From: Vicinamibacterales bacterium
Lineage (GTDB): Bacteria; Acidobacteriota; Vicinamibacteria; Vicinamibacterales; 2-12-FULL-66-21
Length of the DNA stretch: 41,564 nucleotides
Direction of reading: 5' to 3'
NCBI GenBank assembly: GCA_036258055.1
Contig: DATAEK010000013.1
Location: forward strand, 1-41,564
Part shown: one piece after another, positions 21,690-30,620 of the stretch
Position numbering within the stretch: the stretch's first letter is position 1
Layout of the letters: each line of letters begins with the position of its first letter
Notes under the pieces: generated by a model
Told to the model about the DNA's origin: nothing
The model's database searches: none
What the model saw: only the letters and a program-made list of their open reading frames with translations
Position numbers and translations under genes: made by a program

Positions 21690-23168
21690 CTACTCCACCC
21701 GAATGGTGCGCCATTTACCCTGATGGAATCGCGCGGCGGACAGGACGCAGCGCGTGAGGTGGCCGAGCAGGATCGCTGTCCAGACCGTCTGCGGCTGAAG
21801 CCGTCCCATTGCTTGCATCGTGAACAGGATCCCGAGCGGCACGACAATCTGCGACGCGAGGGTGATGTAGAGCGGGCTTCGAGTGTCTCCGGTTCCCTGG
21901 AGCCCACCCGTGTAGGTCAGCGCGACGGTAATGAAGAGTCCTGACAGGCTGAGGAAACGAAGCAGCTGCGTGCCCAGTGCGACGACGGTGGGATCCTTCA
22001 GGCCGAAGATCGCGAGCAGATACTCAGGGACGATCAGGAACATCGCGCCGACAGTGGCCGCGACACAGAGACCGAACCGCGCGGCGATGTGCACGCCGCG
22101 CATGGCCCGCTCGGGTTTGCCCGCGCCGAGATTCTGGCCGGCGACGGCAGCCGCCGCACCCATGAGACCGACCGACGTCCAGGTGATCAGCGAGAAGAGC
22201 TCGGTGTAGCCCACCGCGTACGCGGCTTGCGCCTCCGCGCTGTGCTCGAGCGAACCGATGAACCGCAGGAGCAGCACGCCCGCGACGTTCATCGCCACAC
22301 CCTGAATCCCCGCAGGCAGGCCGAACCGGAACAGTGACCGGATGATCGTCCAGTCGGGCCGCCAGGCCATGCCCTTCGAGAAGTGCACGACGAGACGGCC
22401 GCGGAAGATCATCCACAGCGCGACCAAGGAGACGATGGTGCTCGCCGTAACCGTGCCGATTGCCGCACCGCGCGTGCCGAACCTCGGGATCGGTCCCCAA
22501 CCCGGAATGAGGATCACGTTGAAGCACATGTTGAGGATCGTCATCCAGATCCCGAGCCGCAGCGGCGTCCGCGCATCGCCGGCCGCACGCAGTGCGCCGC
22601 CGAGCATGAAGAAGAGCAGCATCCCGAGACTGAAGACGAACATCGTTCGCAGAAACGGGAGCGCTTCGGCACGGACGGCGGGTGTGGCGTGCACGAGCTC
22701 GAGCAGCCTCGGCGCCAGTACGTAACCAAGCGGTGCGAGGATGCCGACCGCAAGTACGACCGCCGTCAGGAACGCCTGATAGACCGTGCGGTTGACCTTC
22801 TCCGGCTGGTTGGCCCCCGCGAAACGCGCGACCAGGACACCCATTCCGGTGAAGAGCGAGCTGATGAAGACGATGACGACCAGAAAGATCTGCCAGCTCA
22901 CGCCGATGGCCGCATTGGCGGTGAAGCCGACGTAGTGGCCGACCATCGCGTGATCGATGATCCCCTGCAGTCCGCCAATGGCGTTCTGAAGGACCGTGGG
23001 CCACGCGATCTTCCAGACGGCGCGTGCGATCGGTCCCTCGACGATCGATCGATCCAGACGGCGGGCCGCGGCGCCGGACGCAGCCGCCGTCGCGGCAGGC
23101 GGAATGATCGTTCCCGCGGCTGGCGATGGATCCGCAGCGGGGGATATGGCTGCCGACGACTCGCTCAT
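21690..23168 (-). CDS. MATE-family efflux transporter
   Basis: About 492 aa from the ATG at 23168 (SD AAGGA). 12 predicted TM segments and a MATE-like N-terminus (IARAVWKIAWPTVLQNAIGGLQGIIDHAMVGH). The long 5' extension of the ORF to 23687 overlaps the VOC gene and is rejected. ATGA overlap with the VOC gene stop. Confidence 0.8.
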   Translation of the reverse strand: MSESSAAISPAADPSPAAGTIIPPAATAAASGAAARRLDRSIVEGPIARAVWKIAWPTVLQNAIGGLQGIIDHAMVGHYVGFTANAAIGVSWQIFLVVIVFISSLFTGMGVLVARFAGANQPEKVNRTVYQAFLTAVVLAVGILAPLGYVLAPRLLELVHATPAVRAEALPFLRTMFVFSLGMLLFFMLGGALRAAGDARTPLRLGIWMTILNMCFNVILIPGWGPIPRFGTRGAAIGTVTASTIVSLVALWMIFRGRLVVHFSKGMAWRPDWTIIRSLFRFGLPAGIQGVAMNVAGVLLLRFIGSLEHSAEAQAAYAVGYTELFSLITWTSVGLMGAAAAVAGQNLGAGKPERAMRGVHIAARFGLCVAATVGAMFLIVPEYLLAIFGLKDPTVVALGTQLLRFLSLSGLFITVALTYTGGLQGTGDTRSPLYITLASQIVVPLGILFTMQAMGRLQPQTVWTAILLGHLTRCVLSAARFHQGKWRTIRVE

Positions 23169-24091
23169 CGCAAATCCTTGAGGATGCGCCGCACGTCGGC
23201 ATGAGCGAGGACGACAGCTGGCTGGCGCTGCAGCGCTTCGAAGTAGCGGCGCGCGAACCCGTCGCCGGTCTCCGACGCGGTGAGGAGACGCTCGACCTGT
23301 TCCACGAGCGTTTGCGCATCGGCGGATGTGGCGGGTGCGTCCTGTTCGACGGCCTGATCGATCCGGACGATCAACTCCGAGAGCGCGTGCAGCCAGGCGA
23401 ACCAGGGATCGTTGATCACCAGCTGCAGCAGGCCCGCATTCGATCCGACGCGCCCTCGGTCCATCTCGTACGCCGCGCGCGCATCGTCGAGCAGCACCTT
23501 GTGCAGGTGGAGCAGCCGGCCCCTGAGCGCCCGCAGGCGCTCGCGCTCGGTCTCGGTCATCAGCGCGTAGGCTGGGACGGCCGTTGCAGAAGCTTCGGCC
23601 GGCACTGACGACGCTGCAGCACGGAGCGCATCCAGATCGAGCCGCACCGTCCCCATGTTGAGCGAACCATTCGCACTCCGCGGCCACTCGTCACGCGGAC
23701 GGTCGACGTACAGCTCGAGGCCGTTCTGGTCCGGATCGCGCAGATAGAGCGCTTCGCTGACGCCGTGATCGCTCGCTCCGTCGAGCTGGATCCCCGCGCT
23801 GTCCAATCGCAGCAACGCGTCAGCAAGGGCCGCGCGGTTCGGATAGCGGACTGCGAAGTGGTAGAGACCTGTCGTGCCCGGTGGCGGCGGCGACCCACCC
23901 TGGCTTTCCCAGGTGTTCAGTCCGATGTGATGGTGGTAGCCGCCGGCACTGAGAAAGGCCGCCGAGTTACCCATCCGCTGCATGACCTCGAAGCCCAGCA
24001 CGCCCGAGTAGAACGCGATCGCCCGGTCGAGGTCGGCGACCTTGAGATGCACGTGGCCGATATCCACGTGCGAATCGAGCGGCTTCTGCAT
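23165..24091 (-). CDS. VOC-family (glyoxalase/bleomycin-resistance/dioxygenase fold) protein fused to a C-terminal domain of unknown function
   Basis: The N-terminal ~135 aa carry VOC motifs (HVHLKVADLDRAIAFYSGVLGFEV, HHHIGL, LYLRDPDQNGLELY). The remaining ~170 aa have no recognisable domain. Confidence 0.6.
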   Translation of the reverse strand: MQKPLDSHVDIGHVHLKVADLDRAIAFYSGVLGFEVMQRMGNSAAFLSAGGYHHHIGLNTWESQGGSPPPPGTTGLYHFAVRYPNRAALADALLRLDSAGIQLDGASDHGVSEALYLRDPDQNGLELYVDRPRDEWPRSANGSLNMGTVRLDLDALRAAASSVPAEASATAVPAYALMTETERERLRALRGRLLHLHKVLLDDARAAYEMDRGRVGSNAGLLQLVINDPWFAWLHALSELIVRIDQAVEQDAPATSADAQTLVEQVERLLTASETGDGFARRYFEALQRQPAVVLAHADVRRILKDLR

Positions 24092-24188
24092 AGGCCATCA
24101 TCGCGCACGTTGTAGGGTGGAGATCAAGCGCACCTGCCGGCCTGCGAATGGTGGCGGTTTTGCAACCGCAATCCCCCGGGAGGGAAAG

Positions 24189-24743
24189 GTGGCTGAAGTC
24201 CTCGCGCAGTTCACGGATCCGTTAGTTGGGGAGGATGGCGCGATCTATCTCGCACGCGTCTGCGGCGTGCTCGCGTCCGACGGTTTGTGGCAGGGCTGGA
24301 TCGAGTTCGAACCGGTCGATGGCGGACCAACGCTGCGCTCCGGTCGCGAGACGACGCAACCGAATAGGCAGGACGCACTCTATTGGGCCAGCGGCCTCAC
24401 GCACGTGTACCTCGAAGGAGCGCTGCGACGAGCCTTGAAGCCGCTCGTCAGGCCGATTGAACCGGAGACACCCGTACCGGCGTTCGACGGTCCCGCACCC
24501 GACATCACGCTTCCGCCTCCGGTCGAAAGCGTGCTCAATCCATTCTCGGTCTACCGCAAGGGCGAGGCAGTCCTGCGCGCTCAACTGTCTGCGCTTTCCG
24601 CCTGGCACCTCGTGAATATCCTTCGAGCCTACAACTTGACCGATGTAGACAGCGCCACTTTGAACCACCTCGAAGATCGCGTGCTCGTTGAGATGATCAT
24701 CGCGGCCGTACGGGCGGAGGAGTCGTCGCGATTGCTTCGCTGA
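24189..24743 (+). CDS. Hypothetical protein
   Basis: 184 aa from an in-frame GTG at 24189, preceded by a strong SD (GGGAGGGAAAGG). No recognisable domain. The longer ATG-initiated ORF from 24042 overlaps the VOC gene's 5' end on the other strand. Confidence 0.35.
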   Translation: MAEVLAQFTDPLVGEDGAIYLARVCGVLASDGLWQGWIEFEPVDGGPTLRSGRETTQPNRQDALYWASGLTHVYLEGALRRALKPLVRPIEPETPVPAFDGPAPDITLPPPVESVLNPFSVYRKGEAVLRAQLSALSAWHLVNILRAYNLTDVDSATLNHLEDRVLVEMIIAAVRAEESSRLLR

Positions 24744-24777: not shown

Positions 24778-25155
24778 CTACTCGTGCGAGGACTTGAACA
24801 GCAGCCTGCGAACCTCGCTGACGATCACGCCAGGGTCGCAGGGCTTCGCGAGAAAGACGTCGCAGCCGGCGCTCGCCGCTTCGGCTCGATCGGCGGGTAG
24901 AACGCACCCGGAAACCGCGACGATGGGAATGGTGCGGAGGCTGGGATCGGCGCGAATGCGGCGGGCCACTTCCCACCCGTTCATGCCGGGCAGCTGCAGG
25001 TCCAGGACGATGATGTCGGGTGGAGAGGCGGAGGCGAGCGCGTACAGCTCCTCCGCGCTACCGGCCGTCACTGCGGCGAGTCCACAGGCGCCAAGGTACT
25101 CCGCATAGCCCTCGCGCGTATCTTCGTGGTCGTCCACGATGATGCACAACGCCAT
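24778..25155 (-). CDS. Stand-alone response regulator receiver (CheY-like) protein
   Basis: 125 aa. The acidic pocket (IIVDDHED), the phospho-acceptor Asp in IIVLDLQLPGMNG, and a conserved C-terminal Lys (FLAKP) are all present. No output domain. Confidence 0.8.
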   Translation of the reverse strand: MALCIIVDDHEDTREGYAEYLGACGLAAVTAGSAEELYALASASPPDIIVLDLQLPGMNGWEVARRIRADPSLRTIPIVAVSGCVLPADRAEAASAGCDVFLAKPCDPGVIVSEVRRLLFKSSHE

Positions 25156-25465: not shown

Positions 25466-25813
25466 CTACGACGCCGTCGCCAACTTGACCTTCGCGCGCT
25501 CGGTTTCGAGGCGCCCGCGGAAGATCGCCCCTTCAGCCATGCCGACACGCGGCGCGGACATTTCTCCTTCGACCTCGGCGTTGTTGCGCAGCTCGATGCG
25601 CTCCTCCGCCACCAGGCTGCCCTTGAGGGTCCCGGACACGACGATGGCGCGCGCGACGATGTCCGCTGCGAGCTCCGCGCATCCCTCGACGATGACCAGG
25701 TGACCTTCGACATTGATCGTGCCCTCGATGTGGCCGGCGATGACCACGTCTTCCTTCGCGCTGAACTCGCCTTTGATCCGAATCGACGCCCCGAGCTGAG
25801 CCTTCTGTTCCAT
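25466..25813 (-). CDS. Bactofilin (DUF583 beta-helical cytoskeletal protein)
   Basis: ATG at 25813 preceded by SD GGGGAGG. About 115 aa of repetitive beta-helix pattern (IKGEFSAKEDVVIAGHIEGTINVEGHLVIVEGCAELAADIVARAIVVSGTLKGSL). The N-terminal extension in the ORF track is rejected. Confidence 0.7.
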   Translation of the reverse strand: MEQKAQLGASIRIKGEFSAKEDVVIAGHIEGTINVEGHLVIVEGCAELAADIVARAIVVSGTLKGSLVAEERIELRNNAEVEGEMSAPRVGMAEGAIFRGRLETERAKVKLATAS

Positions 25814-26039
25814 GCTGTGGCCTCCCCGACGACAGACAGATGCGCAGCGCATCTCGCAAGTCCCATTCCCGATGACGAAGCTGACAAGTTCACTCCGGAA
25901 ATTGCGCGACTTCACCCGGCTCCAGGAATCGGCGGTAAAAGGCGTGCAACTCCGCCCTGACGATTTCGTGGCTGGATCTCACGTCTGTAATCAACCTCGT
26001 CGCGGCGATATACTCTCGCCGTTCCGGAAGGATTTGGTC

Positions 26040-26870
26040 ATGCGCAGACTGCCCGCCGCCGCGCTCGCCGCGTTCGTCTCAGTTGCCGTGTGCGCGGTTG
26101 TGGCGCAGCAGCCTGCTCCGCCGCCGTCACAGACGACGGCGATTCCCTCAGACGCGGAGATCGAGCAGTTCCTCCGAACGGCGAAGGTCGTCAAGACGCG
26201 AGGGACGTCCAAGGGCATCACTGGATCGCTGCGCGCGACGCTCAGCGACGGCACGCGTACACACGACGCGCAGATCCAGAGGATCGACGAGCGCAAAGCG
26301 CAGTTCGAGGCTGGCAGTGCCACGGAGTTCAACTTCCGCGACAGCTGGGAGTACAACGTTGCGGCCTACCGCCTCGATCGCATGATCGGCCTGAACCTCG
26401 TACCGGTCAGCATCGCCCGGCGCTATGACCTGAAGCAGGCCGCGTTCACCTGGTGGATCGATGACGTGATGATGGACGAGGGGAAGCGGCTGAGCGACAA
26501 AATCCAGCCGCCGCGCCCGCAGGAGTGGAACGAGTACATGCAGCTCGTTCGCGTCTTCGATCAGCTCATTTACAACATGGATCGCAACACCGGCAACCTG
26601 CTCATCACCAAGGACTGGCATGTCTGGGCGATCGATCACACGCGCGCGTTCCGGACACATCCGACGCTGAAAACGCCCGCCAACGTCACTCGCTGCGACC
26701 GCCAGATGCTCGAGCGGATGAAAGAGCTCACCAAAGAGTCGCTGAAGAAGGAGCTGGGCGAGTACCTCACCGACTTCGAAATCGCGGGAGTCCTCGCACG
26801 TCGCGACCTGATCGTCGGGATCATCGAAAAGACAGGACCAGCAGGCGTCTTCGATCGCCGCGCTCGCTGA
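26040..26870 (+). CDS. Secreted protein with PI3K/PI4K-like atypical kinase catalytic-loop signature
   Basis: ATG at 26040 with SD GGAAGGA. Signal peptide present. YNMDRNTGNLLITKDWHVWAIDHTRAF aligns with the PI3/PI4-kinase catalytic loop and DFG-like loop (GDRHNDNIM...HIDFGH) at identical spacing, but with H replaced by N in the DRH triad. Confidence 0.35.
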   Translation: MRRLPAAALAAFVSVAVCAVVAQQPAPPPSQTTAIPSDAEIEQFLRTAKVVKTRGTSKGITGSLRATLSDGTRTHDAQIQRIDERKAQFEAGSATEFNFRDSWEYNVAAYRLDRMIGLNLVPVSIARRYDLKQAAFTWWIDDVMMDEGKRLSDKIQPPRPQEWNEYMQLVRVFDQLIYNMDRNTGNLLITKDWHVWAIDHTRAFRTHPTLKTPANVTRCDRQMLERMKELTKESLKKELGEYLTDFEIAGVLARRDLIVGIIEKTGPAGVFDRRAR

Positions 26871-26891: not shown

Positions 26892-29177
26892 GTGTCCACC
26901 TTCGTTCGTACTGCCCTTCTGCTCGCCGTCAGCCTCGTTACCGTCGCCTGGCAAGCGGTTCAACTCGTTGACCTGTCACAGCGCGCGCTTGGACGGATGG
27001 ATGGCGAGGTCACCGTGCCGGGCCTGCGAGGGGACGTGCGGGTCCTGCGCGATCGTTGGGGCATCCCGCATATCTACGCGGCCTCGGCGGACGATCTGTT
27101 CTTCGCGCAAGGGTATGTGGCCGCACAGGATCGCCTCTGGCAGATGGAGATCTGGCGTCGCACCGGCGAAGGGCGGCTCGCCGAGATTCTCGGGCCGCAA
27201 GCCGTCGGCCGCGATCGCGTGGCCCGCCTGCTCAAGTATCGCGGCCCGATGGACCAGACGGAGCTCGCGAGTTATCACCCCGAGGGCCGCCGGTTGTTGA
27301 CCGCGTTCATGAACGGCGTCAATGCCTTCATTTCGACGCACGCGGACAACCTGCCGGTTGAATTCCTGTTGACCGGCGTCAAGCCCCAGCCGTGGACCCT
27401 CGAAACGCTGACGCTTCGACAGGTCACCTTCGGCGATGCCACGAGCGAACTGCAGCTCGCGCGAAGTGTCGCGGCGCTTGGCGCGGAGGAAGCCAACCGG
27501 CGGCGCAACCCCGATCCCTGGGACGCACTGCAGGTGCCTGCCGGACTCGACGTGTCGGCAATCACCGAGGAAGTCGTCGCGGCGACACGCGCGGAAACCG
27601 GGCGACTCCCTGTTCCGGAGATTCTGCCGACGTATCGATCGCTCGCCGCGAGGGCCATCGATCAGCGTTCGTCCATGACAGAGCGCGCGACGGCCGACCC
27701 CGAGGCAGTCTTCGAGCCCGGCAGCAACAACTGGGTCGTCAGCGGATCCATGTCCACGACCGGGAAGCCCGTCGTTGCCAACGATCCGCACCGCGAGGTC
27801 ACGCTTCCGTCACTGCGCTACATCTTTCACCTCATCGCACCCGGATGGAATGTGATCGGCGCGTCCGAGCCGCCGTTTGTCGGCATCGCGGTCGGCCACA
27901 ACGATCGGGTGGCATGGGGGCTCACGATCGTCGGAACGGACCAGCACGACGTCTACGTCGAGGAGATCAATCCGGCCGATGCAAATCAGGTTCGATGGCG
28001 AGGCGGTTGGGAACCCTTACGCATCGTCCGCGAACAAATTGCGGTGAAGGGCCAGGCGCCCCAGAGTGTCGAGCTGAAGTTCAGCCGTCACGGTCCGATC
28101 TTCTACGAGGACCGGGCCCGGCACCGCGCCTACGCCTTGCGGTCAGCGCTGCTCGAGCCGGGAACAGGCGCATATCTCGCGGGGCTGCGCCTAAGCCAGG
28201 CTCGCGACTGCCGGCAGTTCCTCGACTCTGCGATGTACTGGAAGTCGCCGTCGGAGAACCTGATTTGCGGTGACGTAGATGGCAACATCTCGTGGCAGGC
28301 CTCAGCGCTGACGCCAACGCGCAAGGGATGGGTCGGCCGGCTGCCGGTCCCGGGCGGCGGTGACTTCGAGTGGCAGGGCTTCCGGCAGGATCTGCCGCGG
28401 GAGATCAACCCGGATCGCGGATTCATCGCCACGGCCAATCACAACATCCAGCCCAAGGGCTACGCGCCGCCGATCATGTTCAAGAACGCGGATGTGCGGT
28501 TCGAAAGGATCACGCGACTGTTGCAGTTGCTGACGCCGGGGCGCAAGTACTCGCTGGAGGATCATCAGCGGATGCAGCACGACGCCTTCTCTCTGCGCGC
28601 CGCGGCGGACCTGCCGCGCTTCAAAGGCTGGACGGCGTCGGATCCCGACGTCGAACGGGGGCGGGCGATGCTCGCGAACTGGGACGGCGTGTATCAGCGC
28701 GACAGTGCGGCGGCGGCGCTGTATGAAACGTGGCGCCAGGTTACCGGACGTCGCGCTACCGATGACACGGCGAGCACAACAGACGGCCAAGCGAGTCCAG
28801 AGGACAGCTTGAGCCAGGCGGTCACACGGTTGAGGGGTAGCCAGGGACGCGATTGGAGCGCGTGGCGTTGGGGACGCATGCACACGCGAACGTTCCCTCA
28901 TCCGTTCGTGCGCGCGTTCGATCTTCCCACCGTCGAGCGTGCGGGCGGCGCGGGAACCGTCGCCGCCGACGGTGCGACGTATCGCGAGATTCTCGACGTG
29001 TCGAACTGGGATAACTCGCTCGGCTCGAACGTTCCGGGCCAATCGGGGCAACCCGGGAGTCCGTACTACGGCAATCTCCTGCCACTCTGGACGGACAACA
29101 AGTACTTCCCGCTCGCATTCTCGAAAGCGGCGGTCGATGGAAACGCCGAGCATCGGCTCACGCTGAAGAGTCGGTAG
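26892..29177 (+). CDS. Penicillin acylase family protein (Ntn-hydrolase, S45; family includes AHL acylases)
   Basis: 761 aa with a signal peptide. The conserved N-terminal blocks RDRWGIPHIYA, DLFFAQGYVAAQDRLWQME and NGVNAF, plus the SNNW nucleophile region (GSNNWVVSG), are all present. The start is a GTG at 26892. Confidence 0.85.
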   Translation: MSTFVRTALLLAVSLVTVAWQAVQLVDLSQRALGRMDGEVTVPGLRGDVRVLRDRWGIPHIYAASADDLFFAQGYVAAQDRLWQMEIWRRTGEGRLAEILGPQAVGRDRVARLLKYRGPMDQTELASYHPEGRRLLTAFMNGVNAFISTHADNLPVEFLLTGVKPQPWTLETLTLRQVTFGDATSELQLARSVAALGAEEANRRRNPDPWDALQVPAGLDVSAITEEVVAATRAETGRLPVPEILPTYRSLAARAIDQRSSMTERATADPEAVFEPGSNNWVVSGSMSTTGKPVVANDPHREVTLPSLRYIFHLIAPGWNVIGASEPPFVGIAVGHNDRVAWGLTIVGTDQHDVYVEEINPADANQVRWRGGWEPLRIVREQIAVKGQAPQSVELKFSRHGPIFYEDRARHRAYALRSALLEPGTGAYLAGLRLSQARDCRQFLDSAMYWKSPSENLICGDVDGNISWQASALTPTRKGWVGRLPVPGGGDFEWQGFRQDLPREINPDRGFIATANHNIQPKGYAPPIMFKNADVRFERITRLLQLLTPGRKYSLEDHQRMQHDAFSLRAAADLPRFKGWTASDPDVERGRAMLANWDGVYQRDSAAAALYETWRQVTGRRATDDTASTTDGQASPEDSLSQAVTRLRGSQGRDWSAWRWGRMHTRTFPHPFVRAFDLPTVERAGGAGTVAADGATYREILDVSNWDNSLGSNVPGQSGQPGSPYYGNLLPLWTDNKYFPLAFSKAAVDGNAEHRLTLKSR

Positions 29178-29269: not shown

Positions 29270-29689
29270 ATGCCGGAGCAAGAAACGTTGAGGCGGGCTC
29301 GACAGGACAAGCGTGAGGGAAAATCTCCGTCCACGCAGGCTGGTGAATTCGTCCACGAGGAGATCGAACACATCCGTGAGGGCAAGCACGGTGCGCGCTC
29401 GACGAAGCAGGCCATCGCGATCGGGTTGTCGAAGGCGCGGCGAGCGGGAGTCAAGCTCCCTCCACCGGCCAAGGGACAGTCCTCGGCGGCCACGAGAAGG
29501 CGAGCGGCACAGGATCTGCGCGCCGGGCACTCGGGATCTCACAAGACGTCGTCACGCCGATCGCGAGCGACCATGAAGGCGCTGAAACGTGAGGGACATG
29601 GCGCAGCGTCACACTCGGCGCTCAGCCGTCAGGCTCGCACCGCCGCGCGGAAGCGGAGCACCACTCGCCGATCGATGAAGAAGCGCTAG
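29270..29689 (+). CDS. Small conserved basic protein (resembles DUF6496-type proteins as recalled)
   Basis: 139 aa. SD AGGAGG 7 nt upstream of the ATG. A highly basic Arg/Lys-rich C-terminal half with a conserved-looking N-terminus (GEFVHEEIEHIREGKHGARSTKQAIAIGLSKARRAGV). Confidence 0.4.
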   Translation: MPEQETLRRARQDKREGKSPSTQAGEFVHEEIEHIREGKHGARSTKQAIAIGLSKARRAGVKLPPPAKGQSSAATRRRAAQDLRAGHSGSHKTSSRRSRATMKALKREGHGAASHSALSRQARTAARKRSTTRRSMKKR

Positions 29690-29717: not shown

Positions 29718-30620
29718 ATGCGCACGCGCACAATGCGGCGCATGACATTCCCGCTGCGCTCGCACGCCACGATCGCCATCGCCCTTCTGCTGACAGTGGG
29801 CGTCGTTCAGCCAGGCTCACGGATACGGGCGCAGACGTCCGAGAAGCCGCCGGTCTACGACGCGTTTGCCATCCGCTTCGGCATCCTGCCGGCGTTAGCG
29901 GTGTCCGGGCTGGTGGCCGGCACCGAGGCCGGACGCAGGCTCGACATCCCGGTCATGGTCTGGCTGCTCAAGGGTTCGAACGGGCGCAACGTGCTCGTGG
30001 ACTCCGGCTTCTACCGGCAGAAATTCGTCGAACGGTGGAAGGTCCGCGACTTCAGATCGCCTGCCGATGCGGTCGCCGCCGCGGGAGTACGGCCGGACGA
30101 GATTACCGACATCATCATCAGCCATGCGCACTGGGACCACGTCGACGGCGCGGATCTCTTCCCAAAGGCCACGATCTGGATCCAGCGCGACGAGTATCAG
30201 TACTACACCGGAGAAGCGTGGCATGCGCGCAACACGCACGGCGGGATCGACGACGAGGATATGGTGGCGCTGCTGAAGATCAACACGCAGGGGCGGCTGC
30301 GCTTCGTGAACGGCGACGATCAGGAACCGATTCCCGGCATCCGCTGCTACACGGGCGGCCGTCACACGTTTGCGTCGCAGTATGCGTCGGTGAAGCTGGC
30401 GGCGGGAACCGCGGTGTTCACGAGCGACAACGTCTACCTGTACGAGAACTTAGAGAAGCACGTGCCGATTGCCCAAACGTTCGACGCGGCGAGCAACCTG
30501 AAAGCCCAGGATCGGATCAGGTCGCTCGCCACGCAGCCCGCGCTCATCGTGCCCGGCCACGATCCAGCGGTGTTCGAACGGTTCACCAGGGTCGCGGACG
30601 GGATCGTGCACATCCCGTAG
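29718..30620 (+). CDS. Secreted MBL-fold metallo-hydrolase (N-acyl-homoserine-lactonase-like)
   Basis: Signal peptide. HAHWDH (HxHxDH) zinc motif plus downstream His/Asp (CYTGGRHTF, VPGHD). Size and motif spacing resemble AiiA/AidC-type lactonases. The exact start is uncertain (ATGs at 29718, 29733 and 29742). Confidence 0.7.
   Translation: MRTRTMRRMTFPLRSHATIAIALLLTVGVVQPGSRIRAQTSEKPPVYDAFAIRFGILPALAVSGLVAGTEAGRRLDIPVMVWLLKGSNGRNVLVDSGFYRQKFVERWKVRDFRSPADAVAAAGVRPDEITDIIISHAHWDHVDGADLFPKATIWIQRDEYQYYTGEAWHARNTHGGIDDEDMVALLKINTQGRLRFVNGDDQEPIPGIRCYTGGRHTFASQYASVKLAAGTAVFTSDNVYLYENLEKHVPIAQTFDAASNLKAQDRIRSLATQPALIVPGHDPAVFERFTRVADGIVHIP

Follow-up and report, generated by a model that had tools for sequence, protein, structure and literature searches.

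A large unnamed bacterial family of Fam20-like kinase-fold proteins, predicted to be exported and represented by a gene from a Vicinamibacterales genome

A remote bacterial relative of the Fam20 kinases

We analyzed a gene on a 41,564-nucleotide (nt) stretch of DNA from a Vicinamibacterales bacterium (contig DATAEK010000013.1 of assembly GCA_036258055.1; hereafter, the window), whose product of 276 amino acids (aa) is referred to as the window protein. Its family, which is unnamed and has no Pfam or NCBIfam model of its own, comprises at least 3,500 sequence clusters at 50% identity. The protein sits on the Fam20 / type II phosphatidylinositol 4-kinase (PI4K) / CtkA branch, and its nearest kin are the Fam20 kinases and the type II PI4Ks. 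It is predicted to be exported, and we give an even chance to the reading that it is an exported metal-dependent phosphotransferase, acting most likely on an envelope or secreted protein.

To define the family, the window protein was compared with clustered protein collections. More than 3,600 homologues were found in a 90%-clustered collection, and a profile search of a 50%-clustered library returned 3,504 clusters at E ≤ 1e-3, of which 793 reached E ≤ 1e-30. Among the matches listed, the homologues were unnamed or annotated as "hypothetical protein", and none had a Pfam domain. Nearly all of the genome loci that we fetched (78/80) were from Acidobacteriota metagenome-assembled genomes (MAGs; Vicinamibacterales, Bryobacterales and Terriglobia), the remaining two being labelled Acidimicrobiia and Planctomycetota, and the window gene was nearest in similarity and synteny to Vicinamibacterales-type MAGs. 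No curated family threshold in Pfam or NCBIfam was passed by the window protein. Its best match to a curated hidden Markov model was TIGR03843 and its best single-sequence Pfam match was PI3_PI4_kinase (Table 1), the latter also found below threshold in 40 of 110 family members (best E 6e-6). HipA_2 was weakly matched by 38 of these members and Pfam Fam20C, at E ≤ 0.01, by only one; a relative with tandem domains (P0130) scored 29.4 bits to the Fam20C model. Pfam CotH gave no match.

The structure of the window protein was predicted with AlphaFold2 from an alignment of 110 sequences sharing 32-87% identity (alignment A2). The resulting model had a predicted local distance difference test score (pLDDT) of 92.6 and a predicted template modelling score (pTM) of 0.86; an earlier model, from an alignment of 32 close relatives (A1), was unusable (pLDDT 54). 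In the A2-based model, the N-lobe comprises an N-terminal helix, five β-strands, the αC helix (residues 104-115), two further strands and the hinge FTWW, and the C-lobe comprises the αE helix (160-176), the catalytic loop, two short strands, the segment ID-H-T-R-A-F and the C-terminal helices. The window protein is thus modelled as a bilobal kinase with the fold of the protein-kinase-like (PKL) superfamily.

The best 22 Foldseek matches of this model in the PDB were all Fam20 structures (from E 5e-8, query TM-score about 0.52-0.66), including zebrafish Fam20C, hydra Fam20, human Fam20A and C. elegans Fam20, and they were followed by PI4K IIβ and IIα, HipA and Vps34. The structural-match figures were 19.3 for hydra Fam20 xylosylkinase, 18.6 for zebrafish Fam20C, 18.0 for PI4K IIα, 17.6 for C. 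elegans Fam20, 15.5 for H. pylori CtkA, 12.6 for actin-fragmin kinase, 12.5 for a HipA-like protein, 11.4 for CotH, 10.8 for PI3Kα, 9.5 for Rio1 and 9.0 for PknB. An earlier note on this DNA had proposed a kinase-like protein from a short motif, and the bilobal model with its matches to Fam20, type II PI4K, HipA, CotH and PI3K structures supports that proposal.

Profile comparisons pointed to the same relatives. The A2 profile matched the PDB sequences of FAM20A (E 1.1e-9), zebrafish Fam20C (4e-5), hydra Fam20B (8e-5) and human Fam20C (1e-4), and that of PI4K IIβ only at 0.09. In hhalign, the family aligned with 20 full-length FAM20B sequences at a probability of 96.7% (E 3.7e-10) over 229 columns in both lobes, family residues 41-274 corresponding to FAM20B residues 87-403 with two long Fam20-only insertions; Fam20 C-terminal fragments alone, covering the C-lobe, gave 92%. 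The window sequence by itself retrieved nothing significant from the PDB (Fam20B at E 1.4, and spurious matches to ribosomal protein eS10). Judged by these profiles, the family is a remote Fam20 homologue across the whole kinase core and lies outside Pfam Fam20C membership. In a survey of kinase-like families, the FAM20 cluster was eukaryote- or Metazoa-specific (PMC9758233).

Conserved catalytic residues and a Lys/Glu to Gln/Asn switch

The segment YNMDRNTGNLLITKDWHVWAIDHTRAF (residues 178-204, nt 26571-26651) had been read in the earlier note as a PI3/PI4-kinase catalytic loop and activation-loop start with identical spacing, in which the His of the DRH triad is replaced by Asn. Both observations hold. 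D181-x4-N186 and D181-x17-D199 have the DxxxxN and +18 spacing of the PI3K motif DRHxxN...DFG, for which we take the numbering to be that of p110, and D181, N186 and D199 are placed as in PI3/4-kinases, in agreement with the sub-threshold PI3_PI4_kinase match. Among the 243 aligned homologues to which all residue counts refer, 230 have Asn and 6 have His at position 183. The "FG" of DFG is H-T in the window protein.

The note had also raised the conservation of these residues in orthologues, and they are near-invariant: D181 is kept in 241 sequences, N186 in 240 and D199 in 241, and the full D-N-N-D set occurs in 228. Around them, R182 is kept in 214, R202 in 240 and F204 in 242, and position 200 is His in 196 and Phe in 39. 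Upstream of the catalytic loop, D101 (242), R127 (241), G59 (240), A77 (235), R150 (234), T61 (232) and E147 (228) are widely kept, as is H75 (217), a clade-specific residue. Position 65 is Arg in 193, Lys in 21 and Gln in 17 (Arg or Lys in 214), position 80 is Gln in 218, Lys or Arg in 20 and His in 3, and position 106 is Asn in 218 and Glu or Asp in 21.

Most of these positions have counterparts in Fam20. D181 corresponds to the catalytic-base Asp (hydra D299, and presumably D458 in Fam20C) and pairs with FAM20B D289, and N183 corresponds to the DRH His, which in hydra Fam20 (H301) is a ligand of xylose. The canonical metal-binding Asn is N186; in Fam20 (DRHHYE), a Glu stands five residues past the Asp. 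D199 is the counterpart of the DFG-type Asp, Fam20C D478 (PMC5413348), and pairs with FAM20B D309, and R202 falls at a position with Lys in Fam20B and Arg in Fam20C. In the N-lobe, D101 and N106 pair in hhalign with FAM20B D142 and E147. D101 is the counterpart of Fam20C E306 and hydra Fam20 D152, an acidic residue that closes the Kβ3-Kα3 (β3-αC) loop and is essential for activity (PMC5865150), and N106 falls where C. elegans Fam20 has E218, at the canonical place of the αC Glu. The roles of the acidic residue, the catalytic-base Asp and the DFG Asp are established in Fam20 (PMC5865150, PMC5413348).

No invariant N-lobe Lys was found in the family alignment. Among the basic residues of the N-lobe, R65 appears to be the best conserved, and it is likely a phosphate ligand; FAM20B K109 lies two residues before it in hhalign, so that the first phosphate-binding Lys of Fam20 is approximately replaced by R65. 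The whole-family hhalign placed the poorly conserved K86, after a 9-residue gap, opposite the other Fam20 Lys (FAM20B K123), a placement that we dropped for three reasons. When the 19 members with Lys or Arg at position 80 were aligned alone with FAM20B, AAFK80 fell directly on VVFK123 (probability 96.7%). Covariation between positions 80 and 106 takes three forms (Q-N, K/R-E/D and H-Q), and the spacing from Q80 to D101 matches the 21 residues that we take to separate K192 and E213 in C. elegans Fam20. Because of this alignment, spacing and covariation, we assign the ATP-binding Lys position to Q80. The window protein thus has Gln80 in place of the ATP-binding Lys and Asn106 in place of the αC Glu. 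In a sister clade, K/R and E/D are retained at the two positions. Q80 and N106, rather than N183, are the main oddities of the active site, and with these substitutions "atypical or pseudo-kinase", the wording of the earlier note, stays a fair description.

Predicted export

The N-terminus, MRRLPAAALAAFVSVAVCAVVA followed by QQPAPPPSQ, reads from its composition as a Sec signal peptide with n-, h- and c-regions, and of 214 full-length single-domain homologues starting with Met, 199 have a hydrophobic N-terminal stretch. We infer that the window protein is exported, with a mature form of about 254 aa. The linker that follows, QQPAPPPSQTTAIP, is without secondary structure in the model, where confidence climbs only from about residue 30. 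The mature protein has one Cys only (C219) and no disulfide bonds. Reading the N-terminus as that of a lipoprotein was dropped, VAVC being a poor lipobox and its Cys not kept among the homologues.

Fusion proteins in the family are consistent with this location. Those in which the kinase-like domain is joined to a Shelph phosphatase begin with signal peptides. One relative (P0186) has a Hanks kinase (residues 15-259), a transmembrane helix (589-607), TPR repeats and the kinase-like domain (909-1153), in that order, and its kinase-like domain would therefore lie across the membrane from the cytoplasmic Hanks kinase. A second protein (P0199) is likewise a fusion of a Hanks kinase to the kinase-like domain. 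Genes for Hanks-type Ser/Thr kinases were also seen near the family gene in 12 loci (L026, L031, L032, L051, L052, L054, L062, L068, L074, L076, L077 and L080).

The earlier note had called the signal peptide, which composition and homologues both indicate, unusual for this kinase fold. That does not apply to the Fam20-type branch, because Fam20 kinases are secretory-pathway enzymes and CtkA is secreted by H. pylori (the PDB entry title describes CtkA as a pro-inflammatory H. pylori kinase). For a bacterial kinase, export is an unusual trait.

Genomic association with a phosphatase and an ATP/ADP-transporter-like protein

To look for functional partners, all neighbours of the family gene in the 80 genome loci were clustered, and direct searches followed. 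A gene for a Shelph-like calcineurin-like phosphoesterase lies within 6 kb of the family gene in 27 loci and, where mapped, is mostly directly downstream and convergent. For the stand-alone phosphatase, PDB 2z72 and 1v73, the cold-active protein-tyrosine phosphatase of Shewanella, were matched at E 3e-44 and PP5 weakly, which identifies it as a Shelph-type PPP phosphatase. An N-terminal Metallophos domain is present in at least 6 of 150 listed cluster representatives, and six proteins (P0200, P0201, P0233, P0253, P0269 and P0270) have a signal peptide and a Shelph domain fused N-terminal to the kinase-like domain.

Genes for TLC proteins (PF03219, ATP/ADP transporter) were found in 19 of the 80 loci, 16 of which also carry the Shelph-like phosphatase. 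The Pfam TLC scores reach 70 bits (cut-off 21), and the proteins are mostly fusions to HEAT repeats, one of them with a cyclic-nucleotide (cNMP)-binding domain (cNBD). There are at least four different gene arrangements among the partner loci. TLC-HEAT precedes the kinase-like gene in the same direction with gaps of 3-34 nt in L073 and L028 (a Vicinamibacteraceae MAG), the kinase-like gene precedes TLC-HEAT-cNBD in L068, and divergent TLC genes occur in L064, L071, L074, L077 and L078. In L081 and L083, TLC-HEAT starts 75 nt and 3 nt past a Shelph-kinase fusion, the two fusion proteins being about 41% identical. In L084 the fusion locus comes instead after a response-regulator and histidine-kinase pair. 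The fusion in L084 (382-4750; P0200) has two kinase-like domains and overlaps the end of the response-regulator/PAS-histidine-kinase pair, and a protein with thrombospondin-type-3 (calcium-binding) repeats is encoded downstream of it. Loci of the Gln80/Asn106 type also carry Shelph and TLC-HEAT neighbours. NTT-HEAT(-cNBD) fusions are widespread in free-living bacteria, and their function is an acknowledged open question (PMC5381601).

Tandem paralogues were found in three loci (L028, 1132-1995 and 5836-6732; L032, 4323-5906 and 5908-6849; L050, 5854-6885 and 7998-8369), and P0130 has tandem kinase-like domains within one protein. By analogy with Fam20C and Fam20A, such tandems raise the possibility of pairs of an active and an inactive member.

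Proposed function and alternatives

In the mechanism that we favour, the window protein would be exported by Sec into the periplasm or the cell envelope, where D181 would act as the catalytic base, with N186 and D199 as ligands of a divalent metal and of the nucleotide phosphates. In place of the classical Lys-Glu pair, which has given way to Gln80-Asn106 in the clade of the window protein, R65 and D101, the acidic residue of the Fam20 type, may position the phosphates. The nucleotide, putatively ATP, would be supplied by the NTT/TLC-HEAT ATP/ADP exchanger, the substrate would most likely be an envelope or secreted protein, and the phosphate mark would be removed by the Shelph-type PPP phosphatase. 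As a PPP phosphatase is fused or adjacent to the family, reversible phosphorylation, most simply of proteins, is suggested.

The periplasm is generally viewed as ATP-free, and we know of no general protein-kinase system in it. It is possible, if on the doubtful side, that the family is the kinase of a hitherto unrecognized extracytoplasmic phosphorylation system of Gram-negatives, in which NTT/TLC-HEAT would export ATP to the periplasm in exchange for ADP, the kinase would act on envelope or secreted targets and Shelph would reverse the phosphorylation. ATP is supplied to the lumen where Fam20C acts, a parallel with NTT-HEAT that is an analogy only. If the scheme is true, the NTT-HEAT/kinase/Shelph system would be a bacterial counterpart of ATP import and Fam20C phosphorylation in the eukaryotic secretory pathway, a function would be assigned to the widespread NTT-HEAT proteins, and the gene in the window would encode a paralogue of the system's kinase from the Gln80 clade.

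Several points weigh against a catalytic role and against the partner scheme. The ATP-binding Lys and the αC Glu are both replaced in the window protein (Q80 and N106), and a contact between Q80 and N106 is suggested by alignment and covariation only. In Fam20A, a single replacement of Glu by Gln at the D101-equivalent is one of the causes of lost activity, even though other catalytic residues remain (PMC5413348, PMC5865150), and given this precedent the conservation of D181, N186 and D199 is no proof of activity. In a direct search, Shelph phosphatase and TLC-HEAT genes were both absent from the window. Most of the partner associations are seen in relatives from Bryobacterales and Terriglobia that share 44-56% identity with the window protein, so that the counts lack phylogenetic independence; across all relatives behind the partner statistics, identity to the window protein is 39-56%. 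Many loci have the partners in convergent or divergent orientation and not co-transcribed with the family gene.

An active extracytoplasmic kinase could instead modify a non-protein substrate, a sugar or lipid of the envelope or of exopolysaccharide, by analogy with Fam20B (a xylose kinase), type II PI4K (a lipid kinase) and Kdo kinase. D101 is Asp as in the Fam20B type (hydra D152) and not Glu as in Fam20C, and both the weak Kdo kinase match and the sub-threshold PI3_PI4_kinase matches in the family would fit such a substrate. The recurrent PPP phosphatase, with its protein-tyrosine-phosphatase kin, suits a protein better. R202 is Arg as in Fam20C, whereas Fam20B needs Lys for Gal-Xyl binding and its K312R mutant is inactive (PMC5865150), and glycosyltransferase, lipopolysaccharide and exopolysaccharide genes were not recurrent beside the family in the clustering of the 80 loci. 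We therefore regard a non-protein substrate as unlikely.

About the same low weight goes to a pseudokinase that keeps the fold, and perhaps nucleotide binding, and serves as a ligand sensor, scaffold or allosteric partner, for instance of the phosphatase or of a Lys-bearing paralogue in the way that Fam20A acts on Fam20C. The replacement of Lys and Glu by Q80 and N106, where the sister clade keeps K/R80 and E/D106, is what such a protein would show, and the kinase-like domain occupies the position of an extracellular sensor in the two Hanks-kinase fusions. The tandem paralogues (P0130, L028, L032 and L050) and the precedent of Fam20A, which retains most catalytic residues (PMC5413348), point in the same direction. 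Against this, D101, D181, N186 and D199 are each kept in at least 99% across the Gln80 clade, beyond the usual need of fold maintenance. The Gln80 clade also makes up the large majority of the sampled sequences and is mostly single-copy in the loci examined, so an obligatory active partner is not evident. Its genes, moreover, still have Shelph and TLC-HEAT genes beside them.

Some proteins that combine the kinase fold with a non-canonical active site, such as SelO and SidJ, carry out other chemistries. The correlated swap of Lys-Glu to Gln-Asn and the clade-specific His75 could alter the pose of the nucleotide while the metal ligands are kept, but we find a nucleotide-dependent reaction other than phosphate transfer, such as AMPylation, improbable, as the catalytic-base Asp, the Asn and the DFG Asp form the set of ordinary phosphotransferases and the association with a phosphatase suits phosphate transfer. 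Finally, although every curated-family match is sub-threshold, a chance motif in a non-kinase protein, or an open reading frame (ORF) that is not a gene, is excluded for practical purposes by the thousands of conserved homologues, the roughly 99% conservation of the motif, the high-confidence kinase model with its structure matches and the hhalign homology to Fam20.

As far as we can tell, the fold and the superfamily were known, and what is new is the family, its extracytoplasmic bacterial setting, the switch from Lys/Glu to Gln/Asn and the set of partners. A literature search, which was incomplete and leaves a prior description possible, found no bacterial Fam20-like exported or periplasmic kinase family, no link between a kinase and Shelph and no kinase/Shelph/NTT-HEAT module. 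The finding is thus a very large unnamed bacterial family with Fam20 homology, consistent signs of export and genomic ties to a secreted phosphatase and NTT-HEAT. If active, it would extend bacterial phosphosignalling or envelope modification to a new compartment, may represent a prokaryotic origin or analogue of the secretory-pathway kinases, and would yield directly testable predictions on NTT-HEAT transport. The natural switch between clades offers a test case for the drift of kinase active sites to pseudokinases or new chemistries.

Comparison with known kinase-fold families

Fam20 provides the best structural and profile matches, and Fam20 and, by prediction, the window protein are both exported via a signal peptide. 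Features common to Fam20 and the family are G-(x)-T followed by a basic residue, the acidic residue ending the β3-αC loop, F-R-D-S...(N/E)xAA(F/Y)xLDR(L/I)LG...VPP/VPV, FDxLIxNxDR, (I/L)D(N/H)x(R/K)xF and a C-terminal helix (ALDRRL in Fam20, LARRD in the family), and C219 of the family lies near QCC of Fam20. Fam20 is metazoan whereas the window family is bacterial, and the window protein is smaller (about 250 aa, compared with a Fam20 core of at least 350 aa), without the two large Cys-rich insertions and the conserved disulfides of Fam20 (PMC5413348). It has DRNxGN with the canonical metal-binding Asn where Fam20 has DRHHYE. Of the two phosphate-binding Lys of Fam20 (Fam20C K271 and the ion-pair Lys, hydra K133), the ion-pair Lys is Gln in the window protein.

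With PI4K2A/B and the PI3_PI4_kinase family, the window protein has in common the DR(H/N)xxN catalytic loop and the ID-x motif 18 residues on, but it has Asn for the DRH His and no ATP-site Lys. It also lacks the palmitoylation insert and the helical accessory domains of type II PI4Ks, which are cytosolic and membrane-associated, unlike the predicted exported window protein. CtkA (JHP940; PDB 3akj) is only 11% identical, and no sequence-level relationship to it was detected in the searches; it is from the host-associated pathogen H. pylori, whereas the family is from soil Acidobacteriota. TIGR03843 is presumably a largely actinobacterial family, and we assume that its members, like the HipA toxins, are cytoplasmic. 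HipA toxins have a HipB-type antitoxin neighbour, whereas the window gene is flanked by genes for a bactofilin, a receiver-domain protein and an acylase; no HipB-like gene adjoins it, and no HipB-like or helix-turn-helix gene was among the ten most recurrent neighbour families examined. CotH, which acts on Bacillus spore-coat proteins, is a much weaker match.

The gene and its surroundings

The ORF of the window protein is intact, with an ATG at 26040 and a stop codon at 26868-26870 on the + strand, and is a real gene. A Shine-Dalgarno-like GGAAGGA lies 7-13 nt 5' of the ATG. A database entry that matches exactly (P0001, 332 aa) takes a longer start; the ORF beginning at 25812 is probably not the true gene start, and 26040 is favoured because the homologues start at the MRR... 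position. A scan for promoters and terminators around the gene was uninformative.

Table 1 Features of the kinase-like gene and its downstream neighbour, and curated-model matches of the window protein, all below cut-off.
Feature	Position	Strand	Basis
Kinase-like gene, 276 aa	26040..26870	+	ORF; >3,600 homologues; model pLDDT 92.6
Predicted Sec signal peptide, MRRLPAAALAAFVSVAVCAVVA, putative cleavage after VVA	26040..26105	+	Sequence composition; pLDDT 50-56 over residues 1-20
Pro/Gln/Ala-rich linker, QQPAPPPSQTTAIP, length varies among homologues	26106..26147	+	Alignment A1
N-lobe, residues 37-139, through hinge FTWW	26148..26456	+	Model secondary structure; hhalign to FAM20B residue 87 onwards
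G59-I-T61-G-S-L-R65 loop and strand, putative counterpart of Fam20 "GTQLK"	26214..26234	+	Conservation; hhalign
A77-Q-I-Q80 β-strand, counterpart of Fam20 "VVFK"	26268..26279	+	Sister-clade hhalign
D101-S-W-E-Y-N106, Fam20-specific acidic residue and αC Glu position	26340..26357	+	PDB profile alignments; hhalign
Catalytic loop I-Y-N-M-D181-R-N183-T-G-N186	26568..26597	+	Conservation; alignment with Fam20 GN(M/A)DRHHYE
I-D199-H-T-R202-A-F204-R, DFG-equivalent Asp and start of short activation segment	26631..26654	+	Alignment with Fam20 LDN(A/G)(K/R)(S/G)FG
C-terminal helical part of C-lobe (C219-D-R ... L-A-R254-R255-D)	26694..26867	+	hhalign; model helices 221-228, 232-239, 245-269
Penicillin-amidase family acylase, signal-peptide-bearing, 21 nt downstream	26892..29177	+	Pfam PF01804, E 1e-178
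NCBIfam TIGR03843 (SCO1664 family), partial, residues 106-258			52.5 bits vs cut-off 172.4, E 4.2e-14
NCBIfam Kdo kinase			24.5 bits vs cut-off 142, E 1e-5
Pfam PI3_PI4_kinase (PF00454), residues 172-238 only			22.4 bits vs cut-off 27.1, E 1.3e-4
Pfam HipA_2 (PF20613)			17.4 bits vs cut-off 27
Pfam Fam20C (PF06702)			14.5 bits vs cut-off 26.8, E 0.029

The neighbours are as the earlier note had placed them. Upstream are genes for a bactofilin (25466-25915, - strand) and a stand-alone receiver-domain protein (24778-25155, - strand), which point away from the kinase-like gene and are paired with it in only 4-8 related loci. The acylase gene downstream is possibly co-transcribed with the kinase-like gene. 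The two adjoin each other in about 10 of the 80 loci, all from close Vicinamibacterales-type relatives, with the acylase upstream in two, and a functional tie was dropped on account of this narrow range and inverted order; the adjacency is lineage-level synteny only. Nothing in the surroundings of the window gene itself hints at its function.

About 0.5 kb past the acylase, a secreted protein of the metallo-β-lactamase (MBL) fold is encoded (29718-30620, + strand), with 68 bits to AiiA, an acyl-homoserine-lactone (AHL) lactonase, against a cut-off of 375. The acylase scored only 46 bits to the PvdQ model, and the two proteins could be an AHL-degrading pair. Between them lies a gene for a very basic protein of 139 aa (29270-29689, + strand) that matches DUF6496 (E 2e-7). 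On the other side, 24150-24743 (+ strand) encodes a conserved hypothetical protein of about 197 aa that has no Pfam or NCBIfam match and is syntenic in 12 related Acidobacteriota loci. A gene at 23165-24091 (- strand) encodes a glyoxalase/vicinal oxygen chelate domain (residues 10-126) followed by a conserved C-terminal extension of about 170 aa without a domain match, and a MatE transporter gene (21690-23687, - strand) adjoins it.

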